A stretch of 55,911 nucleotides of DNA, filler included, from Sluysia triapertura (Eukaryota), in assembly GCA_046118255.1 (NCBI GenBank). It is 4 parts of 4 records of this genome, joined end to end, with 100 filler letters (N's around TTAATTAATTAA, not from the genome) between each part and the next. Parts side by side here need not be neighbours in the genome. Positions count along the whole stretch, not along the records: positions 28,562 to 44,412 come from JBJNIA010217140.1; 3 more parts are not named here. One strand, written 5' to 3'. The position numbers were made by a program, and so were the translations under genes. The notes under the pieces are model-generated. The model made no database searches. It saw nothing but the letters and a program-made list of their open reading frames with translations, and had not been told where the DNA came from. This document shows, piece by piece, positions 1,035-51,348 of this stretch. The number at the start of each line of letters is the position of its first letter. Position 1 is the first letter of the stretch.

Positions 1035-2920
1035 TGTGGGAATATTTAAGGTAGAATAGAATAAAAAATAGATTTAACGTGAATCCACCAACGTACCAGG
1101 CTTACCAGTTAGGGCTTTCACTAAGAACGTGTCTAAATCTTTTGCGAATGCCCTAAGGTCAAGGTCTGTGTGTTAGTCTTTCAAATCTAATCTAAATCTG
1201 AAGGTGTGCAGATATTGTATTCTTGGCTTATTGTTAATTTCAGATTTCAATATAGGTTATCTTTAATATTAAGTTTTTCTGAATAATTAAAGCAATTATT
1301 ATTATTCAACTAGAAAGATAAATAATTTATGAAGTATTTTACGATGATCCTATGAAAAGGAACTACAAAAATAATTTTTCGAGATTAGATTTAAATTCTA
1401 ATCGTTGAAAACGTTATTCTTCTTAGATTTTATATTTAAAACTATGAAATTTATCAAAAATAATTACTCGAAAAAAAATTTATTAAATACTTTGGTAAGG
1501 TTAATTTATTTTGAAAGTTTATATTTAAGTTTACGTTTCTGTTTGTGGTATTTTTAAAGTTTAGAAAAAGGTTATTGATTAATTTATCTTTAACGTTTAA
1601 TGTAAGATTAGGAACAAATTTATGACATAAGTTAGATAAATATAAAATAAATATATATAGATAAATATAAAATGTTTATTATGAAATTGCCGAGTTATAT
1701 TTGTAATATATACGTTTGCTTCTGCTCATATCCCTTGGAATACGATCGGTTTCGCTGTTTAAAAGAAATTTAGAAAAATGATCAATATTATATAAAAATA
1801 TATTCAATATTACTTTATAAGATTTTTCATGAAGATCATTGATTGAGACTTGTCGAGCTACGGAATTTATACTTTTATAAAACTTTAAACGGTAATTAAG
1901 TGCTAGTACAACTAAAGTCTTATCATGATAGTTTTATTACGTCTTTATAATCAGTTTGATGGTGTACGTTGTAGCTCGTAGGTAGTTTGACCAGAACTTT
2001 GTCATCATCACGTTCATATGTTGAGTGCCAAATCAATAGTTGAAATGTATTTTTATGATCAGTCTGATAATATACAAAACAATTCGTAAATGGCTTGATC
2101 GAATCATTATCGTCGTCTGGGTTACGCACTAAATAACTCAAAATTAGTTTAATTACATTTTTACAATTGTGATGATCAAATATTAGATGGTTTAACAATA
2201 GTTTATCTTTACGATTAACTTTATCACGTATTAGATAGTTCAAAGATGATTTGTTTATATCATTAACTAAGCAAATACTAGGTAAAAGTTTACAGTTAAA
2301 GTTAAAACGTAATAAAAATAGTTAATTTGCGATGAATTAAATTAATTCCTGAGTCTATAGTATTTTAATGAAGATTTTACGCCAGATCTATTATAAGATC
2401 TTTTAATAGAACATGATTTTGAGTATATTTTACGTGGATATATTTATTGTATATCTTTACCTTAACACAAATAAACTAATGTAATTATTTGTCAAAAAAC
2501 AGAATTTTTCAAATCCAGCAGATTTCTCCAAAAGTTTTTGTTTCTTCCCAAGAATATATTAAAGTCGTGCTTGTAAATAATTGTGTACTATCTGACAAAT
2601 TCTGTGACTATTTATAGTTGTTTTAATCTGACCTTGGCCAGATTAAAACAAATTAAAAATTTTTGAACTAAAATTTATACTTAATAATTATAAATTAACA
2701 AATAAAAATTAATAAATTAACAATTAAAAATTATTTACATATTCATAAGATTCCAAAAATTGCAAATAAATTATAAAACAAATAATTTTGTAATAAAACA
2801 AATAATTTAATGTAAATAATATGTTTATAAAATAATCAATAAATATTCATTCAATAATATGTGCAAATAAAATGAATCATCAATTTATTACAAATCAATT
2901 TATTACACATCCAATAAAAA
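1035..2920 (-). repeat. LTR-like 3' terminal segment (U5-like), copy A of the hairpin-bearing family
   Basis: On the minus strand it ends ...ATTCCCACA at 1035. Colinear similarity with 35896-37030 (GTAGAATAGAATAAA, GATCTATTATAAGATC, AATCTGACCTT..CAGATTAAAACAAA) and, inverted, with 46480-47519. Minus-strand AATAAA motifs near 2884-2904. Lies 3' of the gypsy pol remnant. Confidence 0.7.
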
Positions 2921-5829: not shown

Positions 5830-6420
5830 ATTTACTATACTTATTTTTCATCTCTATGATTGTATAGTATGTTAAGGGTTTATGATCAGTATATAAATAT
5901 ACTTTTTGTCCTAATAGATAGTGTAAACAATTGCTATTGATGAATAATTTATTTCTGCCTTACTTAGTTTCCGACTGGAGTATGCTATAACTCCTAGATT
6001 ATTATTATCTTTTTGTCCTAAAATTGCGCCGATAGCGTAATTACTTTTATCTGTAGTTAATATAAACGGTTTATTAACATCAGGAAAAATTAATATTGGT
6101 GTTGTAAGTTTCTCTTTTAAAAATAAAAATGCTTTATTTTGATCGTCAGTCCATTCGAATTTTACATCTTTTTAGTGAGTTTTCTTAATGGTTGATATAT
6201 CTTAGCAAAGTTTTTTACAAACCTTCGATAATAATTAGCAAGTCCTAAAAAGCTCTGAACCTTTTTTACGTTCTCTGGTTTTGGAAATTTAACCACTTTT
6301 TCTATGTTTCTTGGATTTGGTTTAATGCCTTCTTTTGATACAATATGACCTAAAAATTCAATAGATGCTGAGGTTTAAGTTTAGTATGCTTTATTTCCTT
6401 TACATGTATCTCTAATTCTA
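5830..6420 (-). pseudogene. Gypsy reverse transcriptase C-terminus/connection and RNase H remnant
   Basis: IEFLGHIVSKEGIKPNP...VKKVQSFLGLANYYRRFVKNFAKI...FEWTDDQNKAF...PFILTTDKSNYAIGAILGQ...IAYSSRKLSKAEINYS...YTDHKPL. Confidence 0.95.
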
Positions 6421-7230
6421 TTAATGTACTAAAGAAATTATTTTACTTACAAATAAATAAAACTTAGTGATGCATCAAAAAATAATAATATAATAATGAT
6501 ATTAAGTTATAAAAACAATTTTTATGATGATTTTATAATTGACCAAGAGTCAACTTTCTGTTCATGATTTTAAGTACGGTTTTATAACCCTCATAAATTG
6601 AGAGTGGATCTATATAATATAAACTTATTTTATTTTTATTTTATTATTTATTTTAATTAATCTTAAGTAATTTTCTAAATATACAAATATGTTCGCTTAC
6701 ACCTTTACAGTCTGTTAGTAGAAATATGAGTTGTTGAGGTGTTGTGTAATGGTATATGTGGATTGTGTTATAACATGTATTTTTGTGCATGTACGTGGCG
6801 CATGTGAGATAATACATTTGTGATAAATGGTTAAATCACCACAGTGATGCTAGCAAGATTCGGAGATGACGATCTCTTCGAGCGTCATAACATTCGAATA
6901 ATATCCTTTTTCTTGTGTAAATAGGTTTGTGTGATCACGACGAATACTGTTTAAGGAGTTGTGGCGGTCATGCAATTATTAAACAGTGTAATCGTCATCG
7001 CTACAAGATTTGGAATATATTAGAGTATAAGCATAGTAATCTTGGAACCATCATAGTACGTAACATATTCTTGTATAAATTATGTAAGTATAGTTGGATA
7101 TCAGATTAAGTGATTGTGGATCATAATAGATGCTGCAGTGACATGCGACCATTAAAATCAATATTGATTACTTAAAATAAGCCGCATAAATATACAGTTT
7201 CAATAAATGAAAACTATAAAATATGCTTTT

Positions 7231-8399: not shown

Positions 8400-9075
8400 T
8401 TGAGCAACTCTTCACGTGGAATCTTGACTTCGTAACATACATTGAGGATTCATCGTACAACGTTCTTTGACGAATTAAACTATTCATACGGATTTGCAGT
8501 CGTTTAGAATCTTATCGTTAGTTTTGTATTTTTAAGTTCCCGCAACGTTTAAGGTTGCATTATTAAAATACACTTAAATTCTTTGTTTAATTTTGAAATA
8601 GTTATCTTTTATTGATAGCTCATTAATATACTTGATTTAAATTTATCATAACATAGGGATTATTCCAGAAATAATCCATTTAACATTGCTGTACTATATA
8701 TTATTTTTTATTATTATTTTTATTGCAGTTCATTTGTACAGTTTCATCATTTAATAAACGTATTATTTTAAATATTATTTTCTAATTTATTTTAATATCT
8801 AAATAAAGAATAGGTTCGGTGTAAGAACCTTATTAAAATCATTACTGGTTCCAAGTAAGAACCAATTTTAAATTCCAATCAATTTAAATAAAATAATTTT
8901 CTTCTTAATAATAAGAAACCTCCAACTAAATATACGACATTTTTTGTGATATTCAAATAAATTCTTTATACGATAAATCCAACGGTTGGCCATTTTTATT
9001 TATGCCCAATACGTTGGCGGACTCACTTTCAATTTATCTTTATTCTGTACACCCTTCACTTCACATTTTCTTACA
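8400..9075 (+). repeat. LTR-like 3' terminal segment, copy B
   Basis: Ends ...TTTTCTTACA at 9075; hairpin at 8979-9017; inverted homology to 13084-13780 (e.g. AGGTTCGGTGTAAGAACCT vs AGGTTCTTACACTGAACCT). Confidence 0.65.
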
Positions 9076-25380: not shown

Positions 25381-28326
25381 GTTTCTCTTCCACAATTTTA
25401 ACCAAAACTTTAATTGAATAAGTTTCTCATAAACAATCATTGGCACTGATTATTAACAATATGAAATAATATGTAATTATCAACAAAGTAATTTCATTAA
25501 TTTACGACTTATTTATTAATCGAGTTTTACTACTTTTAAAGTTTACAATTCTCAAAGTGTAAATATAATCTTTTAGCCCTTTTGCAAATTTTGAAATAAA
25601 ATTTAATTTTTATTAATCCCCAATATTATTTATAAATATAACTAAATCTAGCACAGTATAACAACAACAACAATAATAATAATATAATGCTTATAATTTA
25701 TAATATGTATTTTAAATACATAATTGGATACAAGCAGTGAACTGTTTCCAATGAAATCTTATATGTAACAAAAACATTTTGAGATAAATATAAGAACAAA
25801 TTGAATTATTGTAAAAAGATAAGAAAAATAAAATGGTGTGCCGATTTAAAAAAATCGAACATTGAGGAAATGATCCCAATATTTTAACACAATTAATTAA
25901 GTTGAACTTGATGAAGGACAAGAAACAAAATAGCATTTTCAACAAAAAAGAACATTTTTGATTTAGTAAGATATTTTAATTTATATTTATGTATGCAAAA
26001 TGATTTTATTTAAACAAAGTTATACCGTTAAAAGATATTACCTTTATTTATTACTTTCAAAATTTATTAAATTATGCATTATAAACATTGTTTTTAAGTT
26101 GTTTTTTTACTTATTTTGAAAAAGGTAACATTGAACGAAAAATATTCAATTGGAAACACAAGCTTAATAAATATTGGAAATACTCGTATTAATACAAACA
26201 AACTGTTCTGTCTAATTTAAATGATATATAACAATCACAATTAAACAGTATTAAACTTACCCAAATTTTAAAGTCATATATAAATTGTATGATATTAACT
26301 TAGTAGTCAGATATGGCATTTTTAAGAGGAAGACTCAATAAAACATTAAGGATTAAGATTTTCAAGAATTGACACCAAAAATGATACTTATACGTTTTAT
26401 TTGATTTTATTTATCTTTTTATTTTAATATGTTATTTGTTTTGAATTTATAATATTTTAAGAATCAAAAACTATAGACGATTATAAAAAAATGGCACATT
26501 TGAATGATACGCAATATAATAGATTACGTAAAGTACTCTATGCTGTCTGGAAAAACCGTAAAATTGATTGGATTCTTATGAAATTACCAATTCGAGCTTG
26601 GAATGAATTCGTACATTTATTTCGCAGTTTTATTTCGTCTGGATTTTTACCTGAGGCATTTTTAGTATTCGATTGTCCGCCAGCTCGGTGAACCTCAAAA
26701 ATATTGATTAAATAAATTCCTGCATATTTCTTTTTCTTAAATATGAACATAATATTATATATGATTTTCTTTATAGCACTAATTAGTTAAACATTTGTGT
26801 AATAAATATTATTATTTATCTAATAAGTAATTCTTTAAAAATGAAACAAATTTTTAATTATTTATTTTATACTTATAAATTTAAATAGAATAAATTTGTT
26901 AAAATATAGATAGGAATATTTATTTACTTTTTTAAGCACACTAACAATTCGAGATTAAAATAAATAACATTTATTCCGCAGTTTTATTTCATACGGAAAC
27001 CTTTTTGGATTCTATGGATTAAATATAAAGACGCTTTAAGACTGTAACATTATTTTATTGAATATTGTGATTTATAATTGTCGATAAATTCTTTGAAAAT
27101 AGTTCTAGCAAAAGATTCGTTCTATAAATAATATTTATTATTATGCTTCAGGTTGGGTACTTATTAAAATACTATATTGTTATTATGTATGAAAATGTGA
27201 AATAATAGATAACTATTTATTACTATTATACTTATGACTGGTCATTAAATAATTTGCAATATTTAATAATCTAGAATATTTTACAATATCTAGAATATTC
27301 AATAATCCTAACAGTTTTAATAGTCTACTACTTTTAAATATATGTTAAAATAGAAATTTGATTTATAACAAAAGTTGTTAAATACCTTCCACTACATCAT
27401 TATTAAATTTAGACATGTTTGATATATTAACTTCATCTGTATCACGAATTTATAACAATAAATTCGGCGCAAGCATTTTATAATTACTTTTGTTTTTTAT
27501 TTTATTAGATTAGCTTAATATTTAAGAAAGCTATGTTTTGCTAACATTGACATGTTCATTATAAATAGATGTATGCATTTTTTGATAAGATTTAAATTGT
27601 CGCATGGATTCATAGCATACTTATTAAGTATACAATTTTAGTAATAAATTAGCTACTTATTAATAATGAATATTTTGTAATTTTGAAATAAATTTCGTAT
27701 GTCTATAGTTATTATATTGTTATTTTAATAATGATTGTTCCTATATTGATATAAATAAACACTTTATTTCATTTTACTGTAAACCAAAAGATTCCAATAG
27801 TAACAATTATTTCAATACTAACTTTAATCGAAATACAAATACTGGTATAAAATTTGCTAAAATCAGTTACTTAACAAATCAAACAAACTCCAACAAATAA
27901 GATACTATACTGCTAACAAACATTAATAAATGTTTACTTATTTAAAATACAACATAAACTATATTAAACTAGCTTCACAAGCATACTAAACTGAACATTA
28001 CATAAAAATATATGTACGATATAATAATAAGCATAACCATAATAATAATCATAATAATATTAATAATCAGAATAATAATAATAATAATCATCATCATCAC
28101 CATCATAAAATTTTACCACTGTCCAATTATAACGTGAGATATAACACACCTTTCATCATGAATGAATATTCATAATCAAATATTTGTTATATTAATTAGG
28201 AGAATTCGTGATTCTCGATAAATATCATTATTTATTTATAAAACTAATTTAATTTATTTATTAGTCTCCTTGTTTTATTATGGTAAAACTGAACCACCAA
28301 TATTGTAAAGTGACTTGAATCTTAGT

Positions 28327-28461: not shown

Positions 28462-28561
28462 NNNNNNNNNNNNNNNNNNNNNNNNNNNNNNNNNNNNNNN
28501 NNNNNTTAATTAATTAANNNNNNNNNNNNNNNNNNNNNNNNNNNNNNNNNNNNNNNNNNNN
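28462..28561. other. Artificial assembly spacer
   Basis: N44-TTAATTAATTAA-N44. Confidence 0.98.
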
Positions 28562-28638: not shown

Positions 28639-30270
28639 GCTTAGAGTAATTTACAAATTACCGGTATACTTCACTTTGAATCAATGCTATTATCCAAAAT
28701 AATCTAAATAGCTACATTATTTAAATTATTAATCATATTATCCGCAACATAATTCACAATAGCGTTATTCAAGAATATCGGTAATGCTATGTCGAATATA
28801 TGCTACGATATTAGATACCTAATCCAAAATAACGGTAATGTTAGTCCACAATTATTTATAAAGCAATTTACTCTGCGTTGTACACTGAAAAACACCTTAT
28901 AGTATCTTCGTATATTCATTTTAGCCAATAATCTCATTCTACAATAATCCTCCAACAATAATGTTTTCTGCGCTTATTTTTTTATTAGGGCAATTCTATA
29001 TTTTCACTAACAATGTACAGTAATGTTATTATTATTGTTGAAAAATGATTACATTAACTTACAGAATGAAAATATGTATCTAGTCTTACATGTTATGGCA
29101 GACCGTTGGATTCTAAAGAAGTAGCAACGTGAATATTAATCTCAAATACCTTATTAATAACGTTTAGTATTACTTCTTACTTAGGTGCGTAAACAATTGT
29201 ACGGCTTATTAAGCGAAGGTATTATAAATTCTGCTATTTCGAATATTTGTTTTATTACATTTGTCAAATTAATGCGGTTTAATTAAAACTTTTTATAGGT
29301 TATTGATCGTATAGATAAAATTTTACAATAGGTGCTTCTTGAATAGGATCGTTATACAAATTTTCATTTGTTAGTAATTAAATGTAACTGGATCAATGAA
29401 TTCAATGTGTTATTCCGATATTGAAAAATCGGCTTTTTATGAAAACACTTAGAACAGAATGATTTTAATCAATTTAAAATAATGAATCTGATAAAAACAA
29501 AGGTTATTTTATACAAATTAGATCAAATACCATTTTTATTACAAATAAGAATAAAAACTTACACAAATTATAATCAAGGTTAAGATTATTTTTTAAATAT
29601 TTACTAGATTAATAATATTGTCGTTAATCTTAAAAACAAAAAATCAATCAATAAATATTATTATTAAATATTCTGAATACGTATAAAATTGAAAAATCAA
29701 AAAATATTATTTTATTGTGTTATAGACATAATATACACAAAACAAATTTAGATTGTCTATTTACATTATTATTATTTTGTTAATTACATCTTAATAAAAT
29801 AAAGTTATTCAACTATTGCCATCGTGACTATTTTCATTACTGACTGATATTTCATGATATTTATTAAAGTGAAATAAAATTTCTTAGTAATTTTGTGAAG
29901 ATAAATTAAAATAGAGCTTGAAAGTGCTTGTAATGAATATTTGTGAATATTTTGTTCGAAATAAAATTGTAGGTTGTGAAGCGAACTACCACATATACGT
30001 ACAACTAAAAATTAACTAAATGTAAGAAAATATAACCAACCCACTTATAATTCACATACATAATTGAAATTGAGAAATTGAGAAAGTAATGAAAAAACCT
30101 CGAATAAAAATAAACATTTTTATAATATTTTTCTAAATTTCTAATTGTCTATTGTTAATTTTGAATCAGATAAGTTGAACTTGTTTTCAATTATTTGATT
30201 AATTAAACAGAGTTTATTGTATTTTATATATATTTTTCTATTTTTACTTATTTTCTCCAAATTGGTTTAG

Positions 30271-30486
30271 GTAAGAAAGTAAGCACTGTTGATGATAACA
30301 ATTATGAACCTAATTTAATACCGACTTGGAAAGATATTTTACCGCTCGCTTTAGCAAAATTGACCTATCAAACAGCTGTACATACTCCTAGTATGTTAAA
30401 ACTAATGTTTGGACAAGTCAAGGAGGAAGTAAAATCGGCTGTCGATAAACAATTTGAAAAACAGCGAAAAGCAAAAGAATTGGAAG
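30271..30486 (+). CDS. DNAJC1: Internal host exon, DNAJC1 (MTJ1/ERdj1)-like
   Basis: Polypyrimidine tract and tttag| 216-nt open phase 1-1 exon |gtttgg. Encodes KKVSTVDDNNYEPNLIPTWKDILPLALAKLTYQTAVHTPSMLKLMFGQVKEEVKSAVDKQFEKQRKAKELE, resembling the remembered PxWxDLLP segment of DNAJC1. The exon is solid; the identity is less so. Confidence 0.55.
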
Positions 30487-31094
30487 GTTTGGTTTTATTA
30501 TAATAATAGATATTTCTTAAAATATTTAATAAGTTATCTTGATCATATTTTTTTAAAAGTGTTTGAAGTTGGGTGGCAAAGTTATCCTTTCTGTCTGCTA
30601 CATTTTTCAGGGTATATAATTGTTTAAATTCTAAAAGAATGTATTAATTATGTCTTTTTGAATAAAACGTCAATTTTGTTTGCAAGAAATTCAGCCTTGT
30701 TATGATTATTTTCACTAATTTTGTCAACATTATTATTAATCTTTTGTTTAATTAACTCGTTTGGTAAGTTATCTTAATGGTCAAGACCTTAACCTTTTTT
30801 GCCTGCGATAACTGTCTACTAATATATTATACTTTCATTGCTAATTAATTATCCAACTATTTTGTAATGAGGCACATTACATGCATCAAATACTATTTAT
30901 TTACTAGCAAATGAAATTTAATAATTAAAACAATATAAAATGAAGTGTTGAACGATTTCTCTTTAAAATAATAAATAAAACTGAAATTTTGTTCATAAAC
31001 AACATATTTTTTAAAAAGATGAATTTTAATCGATAATATAATTCCATTATATTACAATTTTTGTAAATTTAAGATTACTAATGAAATACTACAT

Positions 31095-34000
31095 CAGTGG
31101 CGTAGCTACGCTTTTATTATTTTTATATATTTAATTAACTTTTTTGTTCTTTTAAAAATATTAAAATATCAAATCCATTCATTTAAAAAATTAAATTATA
31201 ACTACAAAACAGTAATCATCCACGTAACGTCATCTATTGGTTTCGGAACTCCTATTATACCATAAGAAATGGGAACTCCTTATTTTTTTGTTACTTAAGA
31301 AAATTATACATTATGGACATTGAAGGCGAAGATAATATGAATAAAGATGACAGTACAAGAAAGTTGTCATCGAAATAAAACTGTAAAATGAAATTGTAAA
31401 ATAAAATTGTGTGTTTACGTCTAAAATTTGTTTTACATAGTATCAATTCGGCCTTGACCGAATTGAAACAATTAATAATTAAAACAAAAAATTAAAATCT
31501 TTAAAATTTTAAAATTAAAGCTTTTTCTGATCACGTTAATTTTTATAATTTTTTAATTTAAAAATTACAGTTAATTAAAAATAAAATTACAATTTAAAAA
31601 ATTACTTTTATAAAATTTGAGATTTCCAAATAAAATTCGAAAATAAAATTCCTAAAATTCCAAATGAATGTTCAAAAACTAAAAAATTGATAAATGTGTA
31701 TAATAATTGTATGTTTATAGTTATATATAAATATAGTACATCAATCGGATCGAATAATAATAATAAGTAATTGTGTATTATTGTGGAATAATAATAATAA
31801 ATAATCATTGTGCATTATTGTTTATTGTGTATATTATTAACAGAAATATACTGAGGAAAATCGAATCCACAGATTTCGAAGGTCTCATTTCGAAATTTTA
31901 AAGTTCAAATGTTTGAAGATTTTGATGATTTAAATATGAATTTTCGATATTTAGTTGACACATTTAATAAATAAATATCAATTTAATAAACTTACTCTAA
32001 TAGGTTATTCAGTCAAAAATGTTGAACGAAATAAATTGACACTTTCAGTTATTTCTTTTGATTCTAGTTTTGTTACACAATCCCATATAAATCGCTATTG
32101 TTGAAAATAATGAAATTAAGTAATCGAAAAAAAATTCAGAAACAAACATTGTATATTAGAAGAACAAACTGAAACTGCTTCTTCGAAATTGGACGTAATA
32201 TCGGTTGAAATACATTTAGCTCATGATATTTTTCATTATGAATTTAATCCTTCCACGACAATAAAACAAGTTATTGAAACTGTTAATGAAGAACGAAATA
32301 TTTTAAAAAAGTATTGACCGATATACATATTCTCAAGAACCGATAAATAATGGAAATAGTAGTATTGATGATCAGCTTTACTATCGGATTATAAAGATTA
32401 TCAGTTTTCACTGGTCGAGTTAAAAAAATGTTTTTGTCTTCATGAAAGACTTGTGCTTAAGCCACTTTTTAATAAAATATAGAACAAAATTAACAATCAA
32501 ATTAAACATATATTCATTAAAATTTATTAATGCTTAGATTGACATTTATAAAAAAGTTCTTTTTAATTACAGTAAATGTTGTTGAAACTCGGGTTGACCT
32601 TTCCAGACCTTTTTTGAATTGCTCCTAAAGAATATTAATACAAAGAAACAATTATACAGTATTACCGTAAAATTGTGATACACAAAAAAATTGGCCCAAT
32701 GTTTAAATATTGATAGAAACTCGAAAATTATTGATGAAATAAGTAAATCAACTGATATTGGGCACTACATTAATGTTAAAGTTGCTGATGATATTAAAAG
32801 TTTATTAATTAATAATTCTTCTAATCACAAGGATAATTTACGAAGGATCCTGTTCAATAAAGTAGAAGTTTCAATGCTTCATACTATAATTTAAAGATAA
32901 AATGTGGAACAGTGCCACGGCCTTGGTTATGCTATTCAAAGTTATTGGATTCAGTATATTGCTGGTTATTTTCTAATCAAACAAATCAATGGTGTTCTGG
33001 ATTTCGGGATTGGAAAAACTTGTCGGAATAAATAAAAATGCATACACTATATGGATTGTTATAGAGTTTATGATTTATGAAACTTGCGAGAAATTCTCCA
33101 TCATTTCGTGGACATGATGAGTTAATTGGAAATGTTTACAATGGACATTTTTTTGTCTGAAGTTGAACTTTAGCAGATTATAAATGCCAACTGGTTCGAT
33201 TAAATATTTAAATCCAAAGTGAAATAATTCAATGTATTTGAGAAAATTTACTGGAAAAATTAATTACTAATATGAGATTAAGTTCGTGGTACTCCATTTT
33301 ACTTGATTATACTCAAGTTGACCAATTAAGCGTTATTAGATATGTACAAATTACTAGAAATCATAGAACCAATTGGTTTTGAAATAAAAGAACCAATGAA
33401 AATTATTTCTTTTTAAAGAAAAATTTGATTTAAGAATGTGATGAAAAGGATATATAATGGATTTCAAAAAAAATAAAAAAATTCAACCAAATGCTGAATA
33501 TATTCATTTGAATTTATTTTATAACTGAATTCATGCAAAAAATATTAACAGAGGTAAATTGTGCTTCAAAAGTTTTACAAAAAAAATAAAAGAAAAAAAC
33601 AATACAACTAAAATTAGATCTATTTAAAATGAAATTAAAAATGAAGCAATCGAGTTATCAAAATCCTGGGAAAAAGACAACCAAAAATAAATAACACTAT
33701 GATGAGCTAGCCGATGACAATGGATTCGAAACAAGAGAAGGTATTTTTAAAATTCAAGTTTATAATTTTGTAAGTGATCGTGTTGTAAATTAAATAAAAA
33801 GATTTGAACATATGGATAATGTTGTGAACTATTTTGACTTTTTAGAATCTAAAGAATTATTAAAATTATGAACAAAAGAAATAAGTTATAAATGCGACAA
33901 GTTACAAAAAACACCCACAATTACTAACAGTCATATTTGCTATACAGTTTACAAACTGTTTTGTTGAAAAGCGATTTAAATGAATCTATATTAATAAGGA

Positions 34001-34550: not shown

Positions 34551-37500
34551 CACCACTATACTTGTTTGAATGGAGTAGACTACAAAAAATGTAATGCTAG
34601 AATTATTAGTCATTGTAAAATTAATTACATTAATTAAACAATTTCCCAAGTCAAACTTTTACTTTATAAAAACTACGTCAATAAAAATATTAATGATTCT
34701 TCCTAAATACATTAACTGCAAGTGCACATAGATATCACTTTATTGGTAATAAGAATTTTTGTATTATTAGTGTTTTTGTATTTTTACATTAATATTTATA
34801 TTTTGACCAAATATAATTTATCTTTCTGCTGATTGGAGATTATAGTTTTTGAGTAACTAAACGTGAAATCTGTTAACATTTTATTACACGTAATATCTAA
34901 TTGAAAAATATTTTGTCTAGTAGATTTTGTACTATCGTTTTACAAATTTCAATTCTGCGATTTTTTAAATCATTCATATTTCATTAAACTTCTTTACTTT
35001 ACCCATTCAATGTAACGGTGTCTTGTGATTCTTGATTATAAATAGTCAAGATCATTAACTAATGATCGAGGATTTATCTTTATGGAAGTCCACCGTTAAT
35101 CATTTGAACGATAAATACCTTTAAAGAATCAATATATTAATTTTGGCACATATAGATATTTGGTGTTGGAATTTATTACAAGATTGTAAATTGAATTAAA
35201 TTTTTGAATTTAATATTTAATAATAGGAATATTTAAACAATTCTCTTTATTTTATGAATATATTACGAAATGAATTTCCTACTTTTAACTTATGACTAAT
35301 GTTAAAACATGATTTTCGTAAATTTTTATTAAAATAATATTCGTTAAAATTATTTGTCCATAAATGTTTGCTAAAAAATTCTATTAATGATATTTTCGGA
35401 ATCTTGGCAATTAAATAACTAATTATAGAAAAATTAAAATAATGAAAATAAACTAAAAAGGATGTATTAAAATTTAATCTAATAATTTTAAGTGATTATA
35501 TGTTAATAATATATTGTATACTAGATTGTTAAAATGTTGATATACGCTTGTACATATTGGAGGACTGACTTCAGACGGAATAATGTTGATATAATAAATG
35601 ACTAAAAAAGAGAAATTAGAATTAATATTAAAATTAGAATTAAAGGATCGTAATTGTGAAATAAGGTAAAGTTTTCTTCTGCTTTTGAAATCGTATTACG
35701 ATTTATGAAATCTGAGTGTGATGTCTAATGAGTTGAAGTATGGCCACATAACATATAAGATATCATTCGTGTGAATTGCAACAACTTGTTGTAAATTTAT
35801 TTCATTAAATAAAATCATAACAATATCATTAGTTCTATGACTTGATAATAAATGTTCAATTAATACTACTCATTTGTCTAATTCATCATCACTTCTGTGA
35901 GTAATTTAAAGTAGAATAGAATAAATTTTAACGTGAGTTCACCAACGTACTGGACTTACCGGTTAGGGCCAGCCATTGGATTTGTGAATAAAAGAATTTC
36001 TTAAATAAGGCTAAAAGAAATGATCAAAAAGCTTTGCTAAATATTAAATTAGAGACGTCCGGAGGTAAGCTTGATACTCAAGAATTTTATAAGATTTTAC
36101 CAAAAAATTAATAATGATAATGTTATTTGATTAATTTTACGTTGATTCCTTGAAATGGAATCTTAAAAAATATTTTGCGTAATTGGATTTAAATTCCAAT
36201 TGTTGAAAACAATTTTGTCTACAGATTTTACAATCTACAACTATGTAAATTGAATAATAAATAATCTTCTTTAACAATTTATTATAAAACAGTGATAACT
36301 GGTAAAAATAAATAATATATAATATAATGATATTTTACGTGTTTTAACTCTGTAACGGTTAAAATTTCAAAAAATCTAATAGATTTTATCAAAGATTTTA
36401 CATGGGATCTATTATAAGATCCAAATAATTAACAAAATATTTTAAGTCAGATTTTTCGCTGATATTATACTAATATCGTACAATAATTAAACTAACGTAG
36501 TACAAAACAAAATTTGAAAAAATTCAGCTGGTTCTGAAACCGTAATTCTGGAACAAAATCTATTAAGAAAATTGTTAAAAAATTGTGAGATGTTTTCAAA
36601 ATTTAAGTTTATAATCTGACCTTCAGATTAAAACAAAAGTTTAGAATTTAGCTTATTGAAACAAAAAATAAAATGTATTTTATAAATTTATTTTATTTTA
36701 CGTTAGTTTAATTAATTTAATTAAAGATTTTATATTAATTAATTTTCAAAAATTTGTAAAATTAACAATAAATTAAACAATTAAAAATTATTAAAACTTA
36801 CATTTAATATGAAGATATAATTTCCAAAAATAACAAGTAATTTTACAATAAATAATTACAGTATGACTTTATACAAGTAATAAAATGAATAATATGTTTA
36901 TAAATAAATAATCAATAAGTATAATCACAATTAATTCAATAAGTGTGTAGTATATGTTACAAGTATATGCTACAAGTAAACAATCAATGAGTATGTAAGT
37001 ATTAAATTAAACAATCAATAAGTGTGTAGTATATGTTACATAAGGTTTGGAAAGATGTTTTGAAGTATGAAGACACCTTTGAATTTCTGAATCTCTGGAT
37101 CATTTGAGACCTTGTTGATCTTTTGGAATCTTTGAAGACGCTTGAGAACTTAATAAATTTTGGAGACCTTTGATTAATCTTATAAAATGTTTGGAACGTT
37201 TAAATTGTTCAAGAATTAAAATCACGGTTAATAATAATAAAGATAAATTTAATACATTAATAATTAAAAGAAAAATTAGAAAAAAGTTGAAAAAAGAATC
37301 AGGGTGGTGAAGATGAAAACATATAGAGCCTTCTGAGTACCGTATAAAGTATTTGACAACTTTCTAACCATAATAAAATCTTTAAACTTGGAATAATATA
37401 AGTTAAAATAATTACTTAATTAATTAAAATCTTAATTAACTTAATTAAGAAAAATTACGCTTGTGTGAATAACTTTGAATGAGGAGTTCTATGTTCAAAC

Positions 37501-38621
37501 TGTAATAATTTATGTATGTGTTTGAAAGAGACCTTCCAATGAAAGTAAGTTTTTACCGAGTTCACGCGAGGAGAGCCTCTATATTGAGTAAAGTCGAATT
37601 TTAATTAAAAATGATGAAATTTTTTAATTAAATAATGATGAAGAGGCGATGAATTAGATATAGAGTTATTGCTATGAAATAAGAGGATCCAAAAATTAGG
37701 TCGAAATGGTTTGTGAAATGGTTTGTTTCGGAAAGAGAACTTTAAACATTTTCATTTAAAAAATTGAGTGTGAGGATTTGAAAATTAATTAAACTGTAAA
37801 AACTATAGTTAAATTCATTATTTTAAATAGATCAAGTAGAGTAGACGAAAAATGAGAGTTGAATGTTAATCGAATTGCTTTGTTTTTGCTTGATAGATCT
37901 TTAATCTTTAAAGAGGTTTTGATGATTTGTGTAATAGTAATTTCTGATTGTGAGTTTGAAAGTGATTGGTCATACAGAAATTTAAAAACTAATGCTTAAT
38001 AAAAATAATAATAATAAAAAGAATAAAAATAATACTAATAAAATAATATATGAAAAATGCATAAATCCTAGATCATCCACACGATATGTCTTTTTTTCTT
38101 TTGTTTCTCAACATATAAATAAATAAAATGAAATAATAATATGTATATAAAGATAAAATAAAATGAAATGCATATACTTTATTTTTTTAGGTAAAAGTGT
38201 TTCTCTTTCTTATTTCTGTAAATGATCTTTATTTTCTTAGAACATGTATGATAAAATGAAACTTTATTTAAATTAAAATGCTTAGAATGGTTTTAAAGTG
38301 TGGGTTTAATGTTTTTCAAAGGTGGTAATAATTGAGTGTTGAAGAATTGTGAACTTGAAATGTTTAAGATTAATTTTAACATATGTATTTGATAATTTAA
38401 GATATAATTGTGGTTCTAATGTTATGATATAATGGATAAATTATTTTAAATGAAATTTTAAATGTACATTGATGGTTTTGAATGTAAGTTTGGTAATGTT
38501 AATTTTAATAAGTGTTTCATATTTATAATTTTATTTACAAAGTGTTTGTTTTTTAATAAAATTGTGATTAAAACTTTCTTTATAATGTTATTTACATTGT
38601 TATTAGAAAATATCTTAAAAT

Positions 38622-39077
38622 TTAAAATCTATTATAAGCTATATAAACCATAAAAGACATTCTAGCTAAAGAACATTTATTATTATTACTTTTATAAATT
38701 AAAATTTTTAAGTCTGGAGGTCCACTTATGCATAACCCCTTGAGACTTAATAATGTTCCACTACCGGAATAAAATTTAAAAATATCATCATTATTATTTA
38801 AAATTAAATTAAATTTTACTTTAGCAGAGTTTACATTATGATCACTGGTTATAACTTTGGGATTCGTTAACACAATGTGTTTAAGTAGTTCGATGATTTG
38901 TCCATTGTTCATATCGTGTTCATATTTACATTTATTACCATATTTTGAGCAAGCTGCTAAATTAGTTAAAGAAAATGGGCAGAAAGCAAAGTCACTAATT
39001 GCAGGATTCATTTTTATCTTAACATTCTTGTATTTGTATTGGTAAAAGGAATCGACTTTATAATCATTATCATGCAT
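38622..39077 (-). CDS. CCCH-type zinc finger protein ORF (cargo; probably the 3' part of a longer decayed gene starting near 39901)
   Basis: 151-aa ORF, the longest in the ORF track. FCPFSLTNLAACSKYGNKCKYEH = C-x9-C-x6-C-x3-H at 38916-38981. Confidence 0.6.
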   Translation of the reverse strand: MHDNDYKVDSFYQYKYKNVKIKMNPAISDFAFCPFSLTNLAACSKYGNKCKYEHDMNNGQIIELLKHIVLTNPKVITSDHNVNSAKVKFNLILNNNDDIFKFYSGSGTLLSLKGLCISGPPDLKILIYKSNNNKCSLARMSFMVYIAYNRF

Positions 39078-41157
39078 ACATAATTTATGTTCACTGTTGA
39101 CTACATTAAAGCATTAGATGATCTTTAAGTTTTCAAATTCTTTTTTCGTATTATCTTAATCAAAGTAACGCTTTTGTGATGATCAAGGATCAACTAATGT
39201 AATTCTTATAACATTTATACAAATTATCAAATTTAATTTCTTTAAAACTTTTAAAATTATATCATTACATGATAAACTCACAATAAACATAGTTTTATTT
39301 AGAAAAGGTTTAGAATTATACTAATACTGTTTAAATACTTACTGCCTTCAACATTACAGTATTTTATTGTAACAGTCAACATAACGGTTTACATAAGTAT
39401 TATGTCTCAAGAGTAGATATCCATAGTTGTATAAATTACGTTGTCTTTCATCTACGACGATTATGATAGTCTTTTTATTATACTCATGAATAAAGAATTT
39501 CATAACATATGATAAAGAATTGCTATTTAAAATTGATAGATCTAAAACATACATCAATACAGTGATCCCAATATAGCTTGCACTGTTTTGTGACTTTTAT
39601 ATTTACTTCTGTCAAGCTTACTCGAAATTTTTCGTTCAATTTGAAATAAAATTTTATTACTAAAGGAATCTTTATCAATCATTGTTGATGTTTCTTTGAA
39701 CAATATCGTTAATAGTTTGTCTAATTTTGGTCTTACATAACTCGAAAATTCAACACGATTTTCATAAATTGTTAATGATGATAATACACAGGTTCTAAAA
39801 TGACATGTATTAGTTGGAAAAAAGGTAATTTTATGAATATCCAAACCAAACATATCTTTTTCAGTTAAACTCGTAACATTAATTTCCATGATTTTGATCA
39901 CAATGTATAACGCTCCAAAAAGTTTTTTAAATTTTTATTTAAATTTTTATTACTCTGAAATTTTATGAAAATTTTCGATGAAGTTTTTGATGTTTTATCA
40001 GTTCTCTTGCTGATTGGTTATCCAACCAAATGATCCAAATAACACTTTCATATAAGCGCATTTGGTTGTATAACCAATGAAATCGAAGATTCATATTCAG
40101 CACACAAGAGAATCAATTTGATGATGAAATAATCAAATGTGATGACTACCATCATCATCAATGACAGAAAAATTGTTAACGTAAAACAAAGATGTCATTA
40201 TGATGATGGCAGTAACTCAGTCGATTTTAGTGTGCATAATTTTTAATTAATTTTTATTATGATAATGATTAAATGTTAATAATAATAATAACAAGAACAC
40301 TATTGTTATTATTATTATTATTATTTTGCAAATTTAAAAATGCATAAACCTTGGTATCTTTATGTCTTACACGAACTTTTCTTTTATCTTTACTCTTTTC
40401 TCACTTATTAAATCTAATTAAATAAAAGCTCATTTAAATATTGTTTCGAAAATATTTACAAGAAAAGAACATGTTTGTTATTATTATTATTTCGATAAAA
40501 ATGCATATATTCTTTGCTTTGAGACTCTATACACGATCTTTCTTTGCTTATTTTGTGTTACTTAACATATCTAGGTTGTAGAAATGAAGAGAGATTTCAG
40601 TTTTGTGAATTTAAAGTGATAAGGTTTTTCTTTGTGACTTTACCTTCTTTTATGTAATTGTTTCTGATATTCTGGCTGAAATAATATTATTATCTGAAGT
40701 GTTACTAATTCATGTATAGTTTTTCAATGAAAACCTAGAATAAAGTAGACGCTAGAGTTAGTAATCGTGGTGTTTGGTTGTGAATGTTGATGTACATTTT
40801 TTGGATGGAAGGATGTAGAAATGAAATATTTTGAATTAAAATTTAATATGTTTTGATGGTTTGGAGTATTAATGTTTTTTGGATGTTGTGAGGTGTTGGA
40901 TAAGTGTTCATAATGGATTTCTTGCTATGAGTTAATGGTGTTTTTATTATGAATTGACAGATTCGCGGTGTATTAAGAAATAAATTTTTGCTTTGTGAAT
41001 TTATAAGATATTAATATATTTTTTAAGGTTATTCAAACACAACACGATATAATCGAAACTCATAGATATGAAAATTTAGTTGAGTCACATTTGTTAATCA
41101 ATCATGAGCGATGTTCATGGAACACACGAGCGATTATTGCAATGAATGCTTTAAAGT

Positions 41158-41638: not shown

Positions 41639-43140
41639 ATTTTTATGTGATTTTTATTTATTCTTCATAGAACAAAAAGTTAAGATCATTTTAAATTTTC
41701 AATTTTAAAAAATAAACTTTTGATAAAATTTAGTAATTTCTTCGTAACCAAAACGCAAGTAACCATTTAAACTTATTTTTTAATTCAAAAAATTTGAAGT
41801 ATAATTTGAAATTTATTAATTATCTTCAACCACAACAATAATAATGTTAACAATAATGATAATAATAATGATAATAGTAATAATAATAGTAACCCAAGCT
41901 TAATGAATAGACCAGGTTTCTAGTAGTAATATCAGCGCTCAGTAGGTCTATTTATTTTTATCGTCAGGTATTAAGAGCATGACAAATAAATGACAAACTA
42001 ATATTTCCATACACCTTCTAACACTAAGCATCGCTGGTCCCATTACTTATTTATTAGCGCGAAGTACATCTCAGAGTAAAATATTTGACATATTCCACTT
42101 TAAATCACGCGGTATCAACAAGCATTATTTATCTTCGTAAAAACATTTGAAACAATGAATGATGGTAATTTGAAACTGATGTAACTGTGGATCACAATGA
42201 TAAAACATAATAAGTGTGAATCTATAGATGACAATGTTTATTAATTAATTTATTATTGGTAATTATACGAAATTAATAAATATGTTCATCGGTTTCTGTA
42301 GCACCTCTGAGAGATGGAACTAACGTGACAATTAATAGATATCCAATTAAGACACAGACATTTCCTTACCTTGTTGTTTCTGTACTAAATTAATAATAAT
42401 AATAATAATCTATTATGATTATGATTATTATTATCGGGCCTAGGATCCAAGACATGTAAATAAATATTATAAGTGAATATTAATATAAAAGCGTTTCCAT
42501 AGTTCATTATTACAATCATTGCGTGGTTTATCAGTTTTAATCCGTTTAAATTGAAAATCATCTCGGACAAACCAAAATGAATTAGGTAAATTATCAAAAA
42601 TATATTTGGTTGTTACAGTATCATTTAACATTCTTTGACTTACCGAAACAGATCTATTACAATAATCTGTGCGTATTACAATACTAACTGTTAAAACTGG
42701 ATAGACACTATCTTCAGACTTGTTATTCGTTTACGATGACTCATAAAATCTAATAAACCACCAAACTGACTGATATCTAATAACTTAACCACCTCGTCAT
42801 AAATCGAGCAATGAATGCCTCTTCCTTCAAAAAATACTTCCAAAACATGTTTGAAATTACAGTCTTCATTATTAACAATATTTTTAGTAAAATCTTGTTT
42901 CTCAGTTTCAATATTATTAAGATTCATAAGATGTTTTTGATCATAGTTACTTGAGTTTAATAAATTATTTTCATTTAGTGTAATGGTAATTTCGACTTCA
43001 CTTGTGGAAGTCATATTCGTATTATAGGTCTTTATTTTTTTTACACCTTTTTAGTACTTTAAAGTTATTTAATACAATTGTTTTCTACAATACCACTTTC
43101 AAATTCAACATCAAATTGTTATTGTGCGTTGTATTGCAAC

Positions 43141-43200: not shown

Positions 43201-44362
43201 TATTTATAACATAACGTAAATAAAATTGACATACAAGCCACTTCCAACGGTGACAATAATTTACACATAGTAACCAATAGTGGCACCATTGGTACTGGTT
43301 AGATGACAAAACTAAAATTAAAGATCCAAAATAATGAAAATAAACATGATAATAATAATAACAATAATAAAAACAATTCTTTAGATTACTCAAAACATGA
43401 ACTTTCTTTTAATTCTTTCTTGTTCTGAACATATTTAAATTGGTGAAATAGAAGAGCATTAAAGAATTGTGAACTTGTGATGTTACAGATTAATGTTACA
43501 CATTTTGGATACAATTTTAAGGTGTAATAGTGACACTAATGTAAAATGTTTAAAATAAATTTTTAAATGTTATTTACTAGTTTTAACTGAAGATAAATTT
43601 AGGTGTTGAAGGCTTGTGATTTAAGTGCTTTGAAATGATATAAATGCTCTATGTGGATTTTAAATGTACGTTAAAATGGATGTTTAAAGATCGTAATTTA
43701 AAATTGCCTTGAAAGGAGTGTGGTTTAGTGACTGTAAAGAAGATAAATTATGGACTATGATTTGGTACATTCTAAAAGGTAATTGTGTAATGTTAAAAAG
43801 ATATGATTTTGGTTATGTTAGTATTGAACTATGTAAGAAAATGTTTATGATGAATTCTTTGAATGTAAATCGTAAATTTTGAGGGTGAATTTGATTTTGT
43901 GTTAAAAGGAAAAATTTTAATAAAATTTTTAATAAAAGTGATAGGTTGGCCACCACAATTATTATAATTATAATAATAATAATTATTATTATTATTATTT
44001 AATAAAAATATGAATAGTATATTAAAATAATATAATTTCATTTTACTAGATATACATTAATTGAATATTTTAAGTTATTTATAAATATAAGTAAGTAAAA
44101 TTATGAAAATAATAAAAACATGTTTGTTTCAATCAAGTAACAGTTAATTCTTGATCAGCGATGCAGTAAACTAAAGGAATGAATTAAAATAATGGATATT
44201 ATGTAAAGACAATGGATTGAAATAAGTTGATAAATCAAAATTTTAATAAATAATCAATGAAGCAAAGAGTTTCACTTATTTATTATTATTAATATTATTA
44301 TTTTTAATTTAATTTAATAATTTTCAAAAGATGACGATGACTAAGATGATTACTACTATTAT

Positions 44363-44412: not shown

Positions 44413-44512
44413 NNNNNNNNNNNNNNNNNNNNNNNNNNNNNNNNNNNNNNNNNNNNTTAATTAATTAANNNNNNNNNNNNNNNNNNNNNNNNNNNNNNNN
44501 NNNNNNNNNNNN
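44413..44512. other. Artificial assembly spacer
   Basis: N44-TTAATTAATTAA-N44, preceded by (CTA)n. Confidence 0.98.
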
Positions 44513-45729: not shown

Positions 45730-45869
45730 GAAGACTAACGCTATCATCATCTTTTCCTTTTGTCTCAATAGCTTTAGTGCTGTAAAAAACTGGATACAAA
45801 ACCCAATGAAGTTGGCTACAAATTGTGCACCATAACCAACAATAAGATAAAGAATATTAAATACGATTA
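45730..45869 (-). pseudogene. REEP5: REEP5/DP1/Yop1 (TB2/DP1/HVA22 family) fragment
   Basis: After the acceptor tttttag: IVFNILYLIVGYGAQFVANFIGF-(frameshift)-YPVFYSTKAIETKGKDDD, matching the remembered family motif LYLVFGYGA.LLCNLIGF.YPAY.SIKAIES..KEDD. Similarity stops before the expected WLTYW. Confidence 0.8.
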
Positions 45870-46479
45870 CTAAAAATAGAAAACGTAAATGCCACACACT
45901 AATATGAAATAAAAATGATAAGAATGAAACAATAAAAACGATGCTATTATTATTATCATGATTAACCGTTACCATAATCAACGATTGCTATATACTTAAT
46001 GTCTGGAGTGAGGGAATTTTGTGCGTAGGTGAATAAAATTGATAAAAAGAAAGTGATGGATGCTATTGCTTTTGTATGAAGTGTGTTATGATGTGTTGTG
46101 ATATAATATTAAAATGTGAATTATTAGGTAAATCACTACAATATGCAATTCACATTGTTTTTGATTTGAATTGAATGTTAAACTAATATTGTTAATATCT
46201 TTTACTCTTTTTATTATTTGAACAATGGAATATATAATGTAGTAGTAATCATTGCTGGAGTATTCGATGATTATATAATTTTATTTGATAATAGAATATA
46301 AACAATTACTGGGATATTTAAATGATAAAATAATTTTATTTTGATAATGGAATGTAGTAGTAACAATTGCTAGAATATTAAATGATTATATATACAATGT
46401 AATAGCAAGAATTACTATTTTAATACTAATTAAAAGGACTATACAATGTAATGACTACTATTTGTAGTGACTACTAATA

Positions 46480-47519
46480 TATGTACTGACTAAATACTAA
46501 ATATTTACATTATTTACATATGTTGATTAATTTTATGTATATAATAATACAATTATTTATTGGTAATGACTAAAGAATACATTGTTGATTAATGACTAAA
46601 AATAAAATATTTATTGATTAATTTTGTGTTGATCTTGTGTACAATTATTGATTACTTCAACAATTTATTATTTATTTTCAAATTTAAAGGAATTAATCAA
46701 TGTTAATAAGTAAGACTTTAATTATTTTTAAATTATTAATAAAATTATATTTAATTAAAAACTAATTTTATCACAAAAATCATTTGTTGTCATAAATAAA
46801 ATATTAGTTTTGTTTCAGTCTGACATATTCTTCTAACCGATTTTCTACGAAGATTAACTCTACGTTATCAATGAATATATCTTCATTCCAATCCTGCCAA
46901 TCTAATCGTGACTTCAAGAAATCTTTATTCAATTTTTCATTATTGTAGTTAGTTTACTTTTATAGGATTTGATATCGATAAGATATCCACGCAAAATCAG
47001 ACTAAAAATCATAATTGTAAATTATTTCGAATCTTACAATAGATTCATTGTAAACTTTTAACTAAAATAATTTCTCAGTAAAAAGAATTTGATTAATTTT
47101 AAGTAATTTTGTATACATATTTATATATACTTTTATATATACATAACATTTTTAATAATAAACCTTACGATTTAATTTTCTTAATTTGAATTAATTTACA
47201 TAGTTTTAAATGAAAGAAAAATCATCCGTCAATTGAATTTTTGTTAGAATATAAATCTAACAACGAAAACTAATCATTTCGATTCTATTTCAAAGTATCT
47301 ACGAAAAATTTATATTTAAATTTCCTGAATAAATCATATAAGTTGAATTAATAGATAACATTCTAAACAACTAACATAAATTCTAAAATTTGATAAACTT
47401 GACTTAACCTCCAATATTTTTACTTTACTAAATCCAACGGCTGGCCCTCGCTGGTAAGTCCAGTACGTTGGTGAACTCACAGTTTTAATTTAACTTTTAT
47501 TCTATACACTTTTCCCACA
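46480..47519 (+). repeat. LTR-like 3' terminal segment, copy D
   Basis: Ends ...TTTTCCCACA at 47519; hairpin at 47434-47471; inverted homology to 1035-2920 and 35896-37030. Confidence 0.7.
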
Positions 47520-49390: not shown

Positions 49391-49399
49391 AATATTTTC

Positions 49400-51348
49400 A
49401 CTAATGATTGTTATCAATAACTAAATACTAAAATCAAAATAATCAAAAATTTGAATATATATTTTAATAATCACAAAAGAAAACGAATCTACAAAGTGTT
49501 TTTATTCACAATAATTATCAAATAAAATAAAAGAAAATTATTGAAATACAAATAAACAATTTCAATATAAACCTTGATCAAATGTAACTCATTAAACATA
49601 GCTGTTAGAGTAGCTTCCAGTATGCGTGCAACAGATTTATTCATAGCTCGAGCTTCCAATAATTCGTACTTTTGGATCGCAGTATTCAGAATCTCGCAAA
49701 CTCAGCAAAATATGATAAGGAATATAGAACAGTCTTTATTGTCTCGAACACTGAGTAATTTGCATGATACACTTGATCGAAAAACTGGGATATTAGATCA
49801 ATTAATTGTAAACTTATTCGACATTTAATACAAATGCGTAATGAATATGACATTCGTGATGCTTCCGCATAAGTTGAACCAATTTTATCGTTGAAAACAA
49901 ACAAATTACGTTTTTCTCAAATCCGTTGGATCATTTAAACATGAATTTGAATTTGCTACTCGAATCAGTTCGAACTCTATTATAATACCTTGAGACGAAT
50001 CAGAATGTTTATTTAATGTCCTGTATTCATATTAATAAACATTATCTACATCATTTTCAATTTTTCGTATTCAAAAATGTGATCATAATCTGCATGAACA
50101 ACTTTATAATCTGCAGTTTGTACGACTAAACGATCTACTCATGTTTTTCTATCCACCGTAGAATTGTTTGACTTGAAATTGTAATAAATAATAACACCGA
50201 AGATAATTTTATAATTTTTATTGCTCCTTTTTTGTCTCTTAGTTTCTCAATCAATATTATTATGTTTTTTGTTTCTAACTATTAGATTATTTGGCTTGCC
50301 CAATCAGAGTATTAGAAAGTAATTTTAGTAGTATGTACTCTGATTGAGTGACGTATAAAAATTACTGGTTTTAAATAAAAGACGAGAAAACTGGTGATTG
50401 ACCATCATCAGTGGTGGCACTATAATGAAAAATGTGACGTGTAGTGTCAATACTGGTGATGAATTGTTATTATTATTATTAAATAAAAGTAATTACATAA
50501 AATTTCTTGTTATCTTTTAAAAAACCTGATCGTTTCTTTCTGCGTCCTGATTTCTTACATATTGAAATAAAATAATCAGATAAAACTATTGAAATTATGT
50601 GAAGAAGCAACGACAACGTGGTATGCTATGGTTCAGTTATCGTTGTTGCTTTATCAAAAGGCAATGAATTCTTTAAAGCTCAAATATTTATTTTTGAAAA
50701 TGTGAGATTAATTTGAGCTACAAGTAAACTACAGAGTGCTAGAATGAACTCTTAAGGTTTATTAAAGGTTTATAATGGAAAATGCGATTTATGTGTTGAA
50801 TGTAATAGTTTAGAATGTTTGTTAGTAGGTTATAGTCTATTTGATTCAAAAGACCATTACAAAATAAATCTTATCTACCATATTATTGAAGGGTGTTGAT
50901 AATGATTGTTTGAAGAAGCGATAGGTTTAAATTAGTGTGATTGATCCGTGATTGTAGCGTGAATGTTTTCTATGTTTCGGGTACTTGTTAGTGTTGTTGG
51001 ATAATATGAATATGTTTGTAATTTAAATATTATGTATTATGATTATAACTTGGTTTGAGAGAATGACTATTGAGTAAACATTGTGAATTATTTTTCGTAT
51101 TAATTATCGAAGTATGGTGTGAGATGAATGATTGAGAGTATTCGACGAGTTGTTTTTAAGAAGTATATATTGTTAAATTGTTATGAATGTCGAATGTTGT
51201 TTTTGATGTATTGAATAGTATGAAATGTGATTGATTTAGATGTGTTTTTTGTGAACTGATTGTTGTGGTTTTAATATGTTAAGTATAATTAATATTTAAA
51301 GTTGTCAGGTTTTGAGAAAATTTAGAGTTGTGGGTGTTGGCCACTACA
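49400..51348 (-). repeat. Compact LTR-like unit (TGTAGTGGCCAAC start, CCAAT module, decayed ORF)
   Basis: Family start at 51348, skewed region, CCAAT pair at 50285-50348, decayed minus-strand ORF at about 49570-50240, T-rich 3' region. Abuts the truncated hAT. Confidence 0.5.

Follow-up and report, generated by a model that had tools for sequence, protein, structure and literature searches.

A conserved GC-rich hairpin near putative LTR ends in Sluysia triapertura and its possible pairing with a tRNA-Ile-type primer

The DNA analyzed here (the window) is a 55,911-nt stretch of the Sluysia triapertura assembly GCA_046118255.1, made of four pieces joined by N spacers. Its GC content is about 24% overall, and it holds no long open reading frame (ORF), with 13 ORFs of at least 100 aa and a maximum of 163 aa. 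ARAGORN detected no tRNA genes in the window. A GC-rich motif of 47 nt occurs in five copies, designated A to E, and the coordinates and strands given for them in the original prediction were all borne out. A profile search of the window recovered these copies at E values of 2e-15 to 6e-21, together with a weak remnant (copy F) and otherwise a single 11-nt noise match, giving five to six copies in 56 kb (Table 1). With a GC content of 0.47 to 0.60, the copies rank within the top 0.03 to 1.2% of all 47-mers of the window. The mean pairwise identity of the block was 0.75 (10 pairs), versus 0.49 after composition shuffling. Six of the seven flanking blocks of 47 nt gave 0.53 to 0.58 (shuffled, 0.53 to 0.56), and the tail block just downstream of the motif reached 0.66, above the other six. 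Copies C, D, and E are 89 to 94% identical within the block, and their immediate upstream flanks are at shuffle level. The motif is thus better conserved than its flanks, as previously claimed, and the repeat is a real conserved element.

Table 1. Positions of the main features along the window.
Feature	Position	Strand	Description
Spacers between the four joined pieces	16666-16765, 28462-28561, 44413-44512		100 nt of N; central all-frame stop linker in each
Copy A	1035..1125	-	5' arm lost; loop and 3' side kept; ACA end at 1035
Copy B	8979..9075	+	Stems kept, one compensatory pair, loop replaced; ACA end at 9075
Copy C	13084..13166	-	ACA end at 13084; about 300 bp upstream in common with B
Copy D, hairpin	35942..35979	-	Outer stem of 6 bp (one U-G), bulged A, G-U plus 4-bp inner stem, 15-nt loop
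Copy D, tail	35896..35932	-	Pyrimidine-rich, terminal ACA
Copy D, loop 8-mer	35959..35966	-	Exact complement of nt 3-10 of human tRNA-Ile(AAT) as printed
Copy D, 3' arm 8-mer	35946..35953	-	Exact complement of nt 63-70 of the same tRNA
Copy D, conserved tail	35933..35940	-	7/8 pairs (one G-U) with T-arm nt 49-56 of the same tRNA, PAS-like
Copy D, G/GTAAGT in loop	35954..35960	-	Taken to be a 5' splice-donor consensus
AT-rich block upstream of D, putative U3/R	35980..37041	-	Colinear with copies A and E
Copy E	47434..47519	+	Changes confined to loop
Copy F, weak remnant	29080..29112	-	5' arm and loop only; profile E=0.014
Start motif S1	43944..43957	-	TG plus 9 nt complementary to the tRNA-Ile 3' end as printed; 8 kb upstream of D, same contig and strand
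Start motif S2	22653..22666	+	14-mer identical to S1; no hairpin copy linked
Start motif S3	51336..51348	-	One G>A difference
Possible decayed start motif S4	6820..6843	-	By eye, tentative; upstream of pol remnants before A
Broken gypsy-type RT/RNase H	5914..6374	-	Upstream of copy A, same strand

All five copies end in ACA, as originally noted, and homology stops there. Up to this trinucleotide, 5 of the 10 copy pairs have significantly homologous tails (p<0.05); beyond it, homology was found in a single pair over positions +1 to +60 and in none of the 10 over +1 to +200. The motif lies 36 to 49 nt from the ACA, or 45 to 58 nt when counted from the last stem base. Upstream, patchy colinearity links copies A, D, and E for about 1.1 kb, interrupted in A by an insert of about 0.9 kb, and copies B and C share colinear sequence for about 300 bp. 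A gypsy-type pol is found upstream on the same strand in one of the five copies (A), where the RT-RNase H remnant matches PF17919 (E=2e-22) and shows 49 to 55% identity to RT/RNase H domains in 12 matches. Since copy A lies after these remnants, the copies are probably the 3' (U5) ends of putative long terminal repeats (LTRs). The hallmarks of LTRs include TG..CA ends and a TATA box and AATAAA at conserved positions, according to the available text of PMC3601003, and the TG..CA ends are shared with the animal Metaviridae LTRs described there. By eye, the RT-RNase H remnant is followed by integrase-like and then env-like ORF pieces up to about position 2940, "env-like" being a label from position alone for pieces that have a hydrophobic end and for which no homologues were found. 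Copy D is preceded by 8 kb of ORF pieces, and the sequence past copy E is homologous to the regions upstream of A and B. No polypurine tract was seen by eye, and the 5' boundary of the LTR is undefined. Paired LTRs around one internal region were not found among these contigs of 11 to 17 kb with decayed copies. A tRNA primer-binding site (PBS), which the original prediction had raised as a possible sequel to the element ends, was not observed, with TGG present within 60 nt after none of the five; this is expected if all are 3' or solo LTRs. The end of copy E, though it lacks TGG, runs into internal-like sequence.

The accessory and env-like ORFs had no homologues except for one irrelevant bacterial-looking repeat protein, and their Atlas scores were below 0.9. 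Pfam returned only weak CCCH, RepL, primase, and Cwp8 matches below the cut-off, and none in four read-through pieces. An ORF of 163 aa at 38625-39113(-) contains a CCCH zinc-finger-like stretch and shares a DNA segment with the insert of A (1766-1844). One of 119 aa at 42694-43050(-) has a weak, below-cut-off match to DNA_primase_S (E=6e-4) and no homologues among longer proteins. An ORF upstream of D shares 78% DNA identity over 79 nt with the insert of A, and homology between the two at the protein level was rejected as not significant (E=0.6).

A separate GC-rich start motif was found at 43957(-), 22653(+), and 51348(-), in every case with unrelated sequence before it and a C-rich strand after it. 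The pattern was drawn from those same three sites, and any chance figure for it is circular. In two of the three, the 9 nt past the TG read as a PBS. A possible fourth site was not recovered by a start-motif search allowing up to 2 mismatches. The start motifs are tied to hairpin copies by position only (S1 to D and, tentatively, S4 to A). None of the three clear motifs is preceded by a hairpin end, and none of the five hairpin ends is followed by a PBS. Part of the start motif has its exact reverse complement at positions 8984-8992 of copy B; the 5' arm can pair with the motif at 9 of 9 positions in B, and with one mismatch in D and E. No clean target site duplication (TSD) was found for the S1-D or S4-A pairs. 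The same 4 nt occur in TSD orientation for S3 and D (51349-51352 and 35892-35895), but a spacer intervenes. Around copy E, there is either a 4/5 match or a 12-bp direct repeat (about 46395-46406 and 47518-47529) that brackets most of the unit and could represent a TSD, the start of a tandem LTR, or the decayed form of a start motif.

In copies B to E, the predicted fold has an outer stem of 6 bp followed by a bulged A, a G-U pair, and an inner stem of 4 bp; copy A does not fold so. A hairpin of about 11 pairs on the pol-sense strand is plausible, with weak folding z-scores (B, -2.25; E, -1.21; C, -1.06; D, -0.65; A, +0.73). In the alignment, 89% of 55 cells are paired, compared to 22 to 49% in slid registers, and 30 of 500 shuffles scored as high. 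Double changes affect 2 of 11 pairs (17 of 500 shuffles as high), and one of the two pairs sits in copy A, which has lost the rest of its 5' arm, leaving that of copy B as the only clean one. The description of the hairpin as covarying was therefore overstated in view of these nonsignificant values, but the compensatory change from C-G to U-A in copy B is real. Several structural details also had to be revised. The U-G wobble assigned to C lies in the outer stem of D, C having an A-G mismatch at the stem base instead; the fold resolves the proposed 1x2 internal loop into an invariant G-U pair and one bulged A; and the centroid structures of C, D, and E lack the inner CCTA/TAAG stem. G-U pairs favor the pol-sense strand, the one named in the original prediction (covariation term of 0.36 versus 1.84 on the reverse strand). 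The changes in copy B fall on 2 of 22 stem and 9 of 16 loop columns (p=0.003); in copy A the bias is reversed, with 9 of 22 stem and 1 of 16 loop columns differing (p=0.025). Given these opposite patterns, the fold and the sequence of the loop and 3' side both seem to be constrained, and the loop and 3' arm seem to matter as sequence and not only as fold. A structured cis-acting RNA, as first proposed, is the best-fitting class for this LTR-like 3' end in view of the ACA stop, the gypsy pol before A, the G-U strand bias, and the preserved stems of B; on the other side stand the nonsignificant covariation, the opposite behavior of A, and the unproven LTR.

The original prediction could not match the motif to a known family, and neither could Rfam, which gave four hits in the window, none of them on a copy. 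Searches with the D and E regions gave four and two hits, respectively, all at E of at least 0.5 and far below gathering thresholds; the models covered included twister, HDV-like, hammerhead, and snRNA families. A suspected likeness to twister or HDV-like ribozymes was rejected, since by eye the topology disagrees and Rfam lends it no support. A tRNA gene or the head of a tRNA-derived SINE was rejected in view of the ARAGORN result and of the permuted order on the reverse strand, where by eye a T-arm-like part precedes a 5'-like part. Helitron 3' ends carry a short hairpin 10 to 15 nt before CTRR, and were dismissed since the copies end in ACA, 45 to 58 nt past the stem. Spliced-leader RNAs combine a donor in stem-loop I with an Sm site; a donor is present in 4 of 5 copies here, and no convincing Sm site was seen by eye. 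A GTDB scan produced one hit within a myxobacterial reading frame of 60 to 65% GC (L001), attributed to chance, and blastn matches of 25 to 27 nt in capsid genes of 11 phage records (best E=8e-3) were also rejected. Among the titles and abstract openings surveyed, none was found to describe the motif or its family, which may be catalogued in Repbase, Dfam, or subscription papers, the two databases and most of these papers being outside the scope of the survey.

The possible partner, tRNA-Ile, was proposed from the start motif first, and the hairpin was checked against it afterwards by eye. The comparison tRNA is human tRNA-Ile(AAT) as printed in the available part of PMC13439101, which may not be identical to that of the host. 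Relative to this printed sequence, the loop is exactly complementary to nt 3-10 in copies C and D, the 3' arm is exactly complementary to nt 63-70 in C, D, and E, and a third block, in the tail, pairs at 7 of 8 positions in the expected order. The 5' arm itself copies 6 of 7 bases of nt 66-72, and the first five bases of B and E pair with nt 15-19. The two 8-mers mismatch each other (C-A) exactly at G5-U68 of the tRNA; nt 3 of the tRNA pairs with nt 70, and a 5-nt linker bridges the two blocks where an acceptor-stem invader would cross. Divergent copies depart from the best-pairing form mostly by C>T or A>G changes, which keep pairing as G-U in the tRNA-facing blocks: all five departures in the three blocks of copy A are of this kind, as are two of the three in the loop of copy E (the other is a mismatch) and the one in the tail of copy B, which also has a G>A mismatch in the arm and has lost the loop block. 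The tRNA-facing blocks persist in copy A, where the hairpin has been lost, and the hairpin persists in copy B, where the loop block has been lost. Two exact 8-mers were found in 273 of 400,000 simulated cloverleaf tRNAs (6.8e-4), and in 198 of 300,000 (6.6e-4) when the 3' end was fixed to the start motif. The chance rises to 5 to 10% over 50 to 100 tRNA types and either strand, and simulated tRNAs understate how often words recur among real ones. Real tRNAs do repeat such words, since the loop 8-mer is also the complement of the 5' end of a Schistosoma tRNA-Lys(UUU) fragment given in the available part of PMC3653858.

Of the functions originally offered (priming, packaging, or dimerization), priming gains specific support from this complementarity. 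We tentatively propose, with a probability of roughly 0.4, that the motif is an RNA element working in cis within the LTR U5 end of a decayed Ty3/gypsy-type family primed by a tRNA-Ile-type tRNA, serving as a switchable auxiliary primer-tRNA binding site similar to the HIV primer activation signal (PAS) or the extended PBS of Ty1 and Ty3. In the genomic RNA, the hairpin would be the closed state, with the 5' arm imitating the 3' strand of the tRNA acceptor stem and masking the 3' arm. Upon primer loading, the loop would pair with nt 3-10, allowing the tRNA to open the hairpin through the loop; the 5-nt linker would then span to nt 70, with which nt 3 is naturally paired, and nt 70-63 and 56-49 would be bound by the 3' arm and the tail, respectively. 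The acceptor stem would thereby be prised open and the tRNA 3' end presented to the short PBS, and, in a cyclization step, the 5' arm, once released, could bind the start motif at the opposite RNA end. The conserved AAG of the linker is unexplained by this tRNA model.

That linker would be accounted for by the main rival explanation, a splice donor (U1 snRNA site) in the LTR that the hairpin presents or masks, which would control a spliced subgenomic RNA or suppress polyadenylation, the tail being part of a short intron. The word G/GTAAG is present in 4 of 5 copies (A, C, D, and E) and GTAAG in remnant F. In A and D, the terminal CA and the next G form CAG 72 and 65 nt downstream (the latter counted by hand), after a branch-like word and a pyrimidine tract, and related copies carry an exon-like block with a terminal donor (7771-7811 and 47896-47936). 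However, the donor is absent in B, copies B, C, and E lack an AG at the end, and the G after ACA falls outside the homologous unit. GGTAAG also occurs 17 times in the window on both strands, and a donor leaves the stems and 3' tail unexplained. We consider this role unlikely, and it may coexist with the tRNA one. It is likewise doubtful that the motif is a purely structural packaging or dimerization hairpin whose tRNA match is coincidental. Two RNAs could pair with each other through its 5' side, which is nearly palindromic (perfectly so in B, around one central base), B and E keep the stems and vary the loop, G-U pairs show a strand preference, and palindromic dimer signals have been proposed for Ty1 in the available part of PMC4974528, PMC5371799, or PMC3592414. 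Against such a hairpin, copy A lacks the 5' arm yet keeps the loop, 3' arm, and tail, the unpaired tail is conserved as much as the stem, and the z-scores are weak.

A DNA-level site near the element end, either a core promoter or a dyad protein-binding site with two imperfect 9-nt half-sites set 9 nt apart, seems improbable to a greater degree: the half-sites of C and D do form an alternative 9-bp stem on the reverse strand, and the short-repeat arrays upstream look like enhancer repeats, but the dyad is poor in A and B, and neither the compensatory pair of B nor the G-U strand bias is explained. Still less credible is a functionless GC-rich leftover that merely appears conserved against AT-rich, saturated flanks. 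There are only five copies with nonsignificant covariation, as this would have it, but the identity of C, D, and E within the block, set against their shuffle-level upstream flanks, and the uneven stem and loop changes of A and B speak against it. The start motifs raise a further possibility, which is improbable but somewhat less so than the DNA-level site, namely, that these are retroelements starting at a 2-nt spacer plus PBS and ending at U5, with one LTR only (a circular or tandem template), and that the U5 hairpin is a self-masked anti-tRNA invading both acceptor-stem strands. Both linkable units (S1-D and S4-A) hold one hairpin only, which fits this single-LTR arrangement; a long LTR merely starting with a PBS-like motif fits the start and end pattern as well.

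The auxiliary tRNA-binding site that we favor has partial counterparts in known systems, considered here from the portions of the cited papers that were available. The HIV-1 PAS pairs with the primer T-arm from upstream of the PBS (PMC13191261), and, as in the PAS and the Rous sarcoma virus U5-tRNA contacts, an 8-nt U5-like block here pairs at 7 of 8 positions with nt 49-56. Unlike in these viruses, the complementarity extends to both acceptor-stem strands within one hairpin, the context is an invertebrate-like gypsy one, and the contacts here are predicted from sequence. In Ty1 and Ty3, a short PBS is supplemented by T- and D-arm contacts and end-to-end pairing (PMC5371799, PMC4974528, and PMC3592414). 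The extra tRNA-binding blocks and end-to-end pairing resemble those of Ty1 (CYC5-CYC3) and Ty3, but the yeast elements use tRNAi-Met, and their extra blocks follow the PBS on its 3' side in Ty1 or lie within the 3' end in Ty3, whereas the blocks here would be 5' of the PBS and include tRNA nt 3-10. The U5-IR stem-loop of retroviruses and Tf1 is likewise a structured U5 tied to the initiation of reverse transcription; this likeness is one of description, and the stem here lies 45 to 58 nt inside the end with no PBS junction seen. Burro, a planarian giant gypsy element, encodes a giant polyprotein with BIR, MATH, and env between gag and pol (PMC6431247), and shares with the present decayed gypsy elements the presence of env-like and accessory ORFs. 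Nothing observed ties the present elements to Burro itself or to a planarian: none of the BIR, MATH, or env domains was found in the 48 ORFs scanned, and the env-like pieces come after pol.

If true, an auxiliary site of this kind would reveal a way for an element to unfold its own primer, by complementarity to the T-arm and to both acceptor strands. In the literature examined, contacts of primer tRNAs beyond the PBS have been characterized only for retroviruses and yeast Ty elements, and the many natural variants of a high-copy animal gypsy-type family would make covariation with the host tRNA directly testable. Should the tRNA match fail, the motif would still be an unusually conserved marker by which to locate the ends of an uncharacterized repeat family.

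Several other features were observed in the window. Upstream of B and C, 8812-8865(+) and 13270-13380(-) are made up of a unit of about 40 nt repeated in tandem, each unit containing a small GGTTC...GAACC palindrome; upstream of A, D, and E, a CGTAAAAT-like word is repeated instead. These short repeats are possibly subfamily-specific enhancer repeats. The exon-like blocks at 7771-7811(+) and 47896-47936(+) are homologous, end in a splice donor, and show several third-codon-position differences; the block is upstream of B, yet downstream of E. Decayed coding-like stretches lie antisense to the element strand next to S1 and S3 (43400-43950, 38300-38600, and 50500-51340, all +), and segments 38339-38458 and 43459-43575 are 73% alike. 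Fragments at 26461-26700, 30207-30500, and 32000-33400 (+) look like exons with short introns, are possibly decayed host genes, and had no Pfam match among the ORFs scanned. A decayed ORF at 45691-45987(-), which we presume to be REEP/TB2-DP1 membrane protein-like, had no Pfam match either. Positions 18854-19566, with inverted ends of 41 nt that are 93% alike, hold what we take to be a Tc1/mariner-like remnant, and 48219-49480(+) holds the remnant of a transposase presumed to be hAT/SPIN-like. With the decayed gypsy fragments, these two remnants, labeled by eye, suggest an animal genome. An AT-rich repeat of about 400 to 550 bp, with an internal periodicity of 150 to 180 nt, is present at 23693-24241, 1 kb past start motif S2, and at 54960-55381, the two being 70 to 75% alike.
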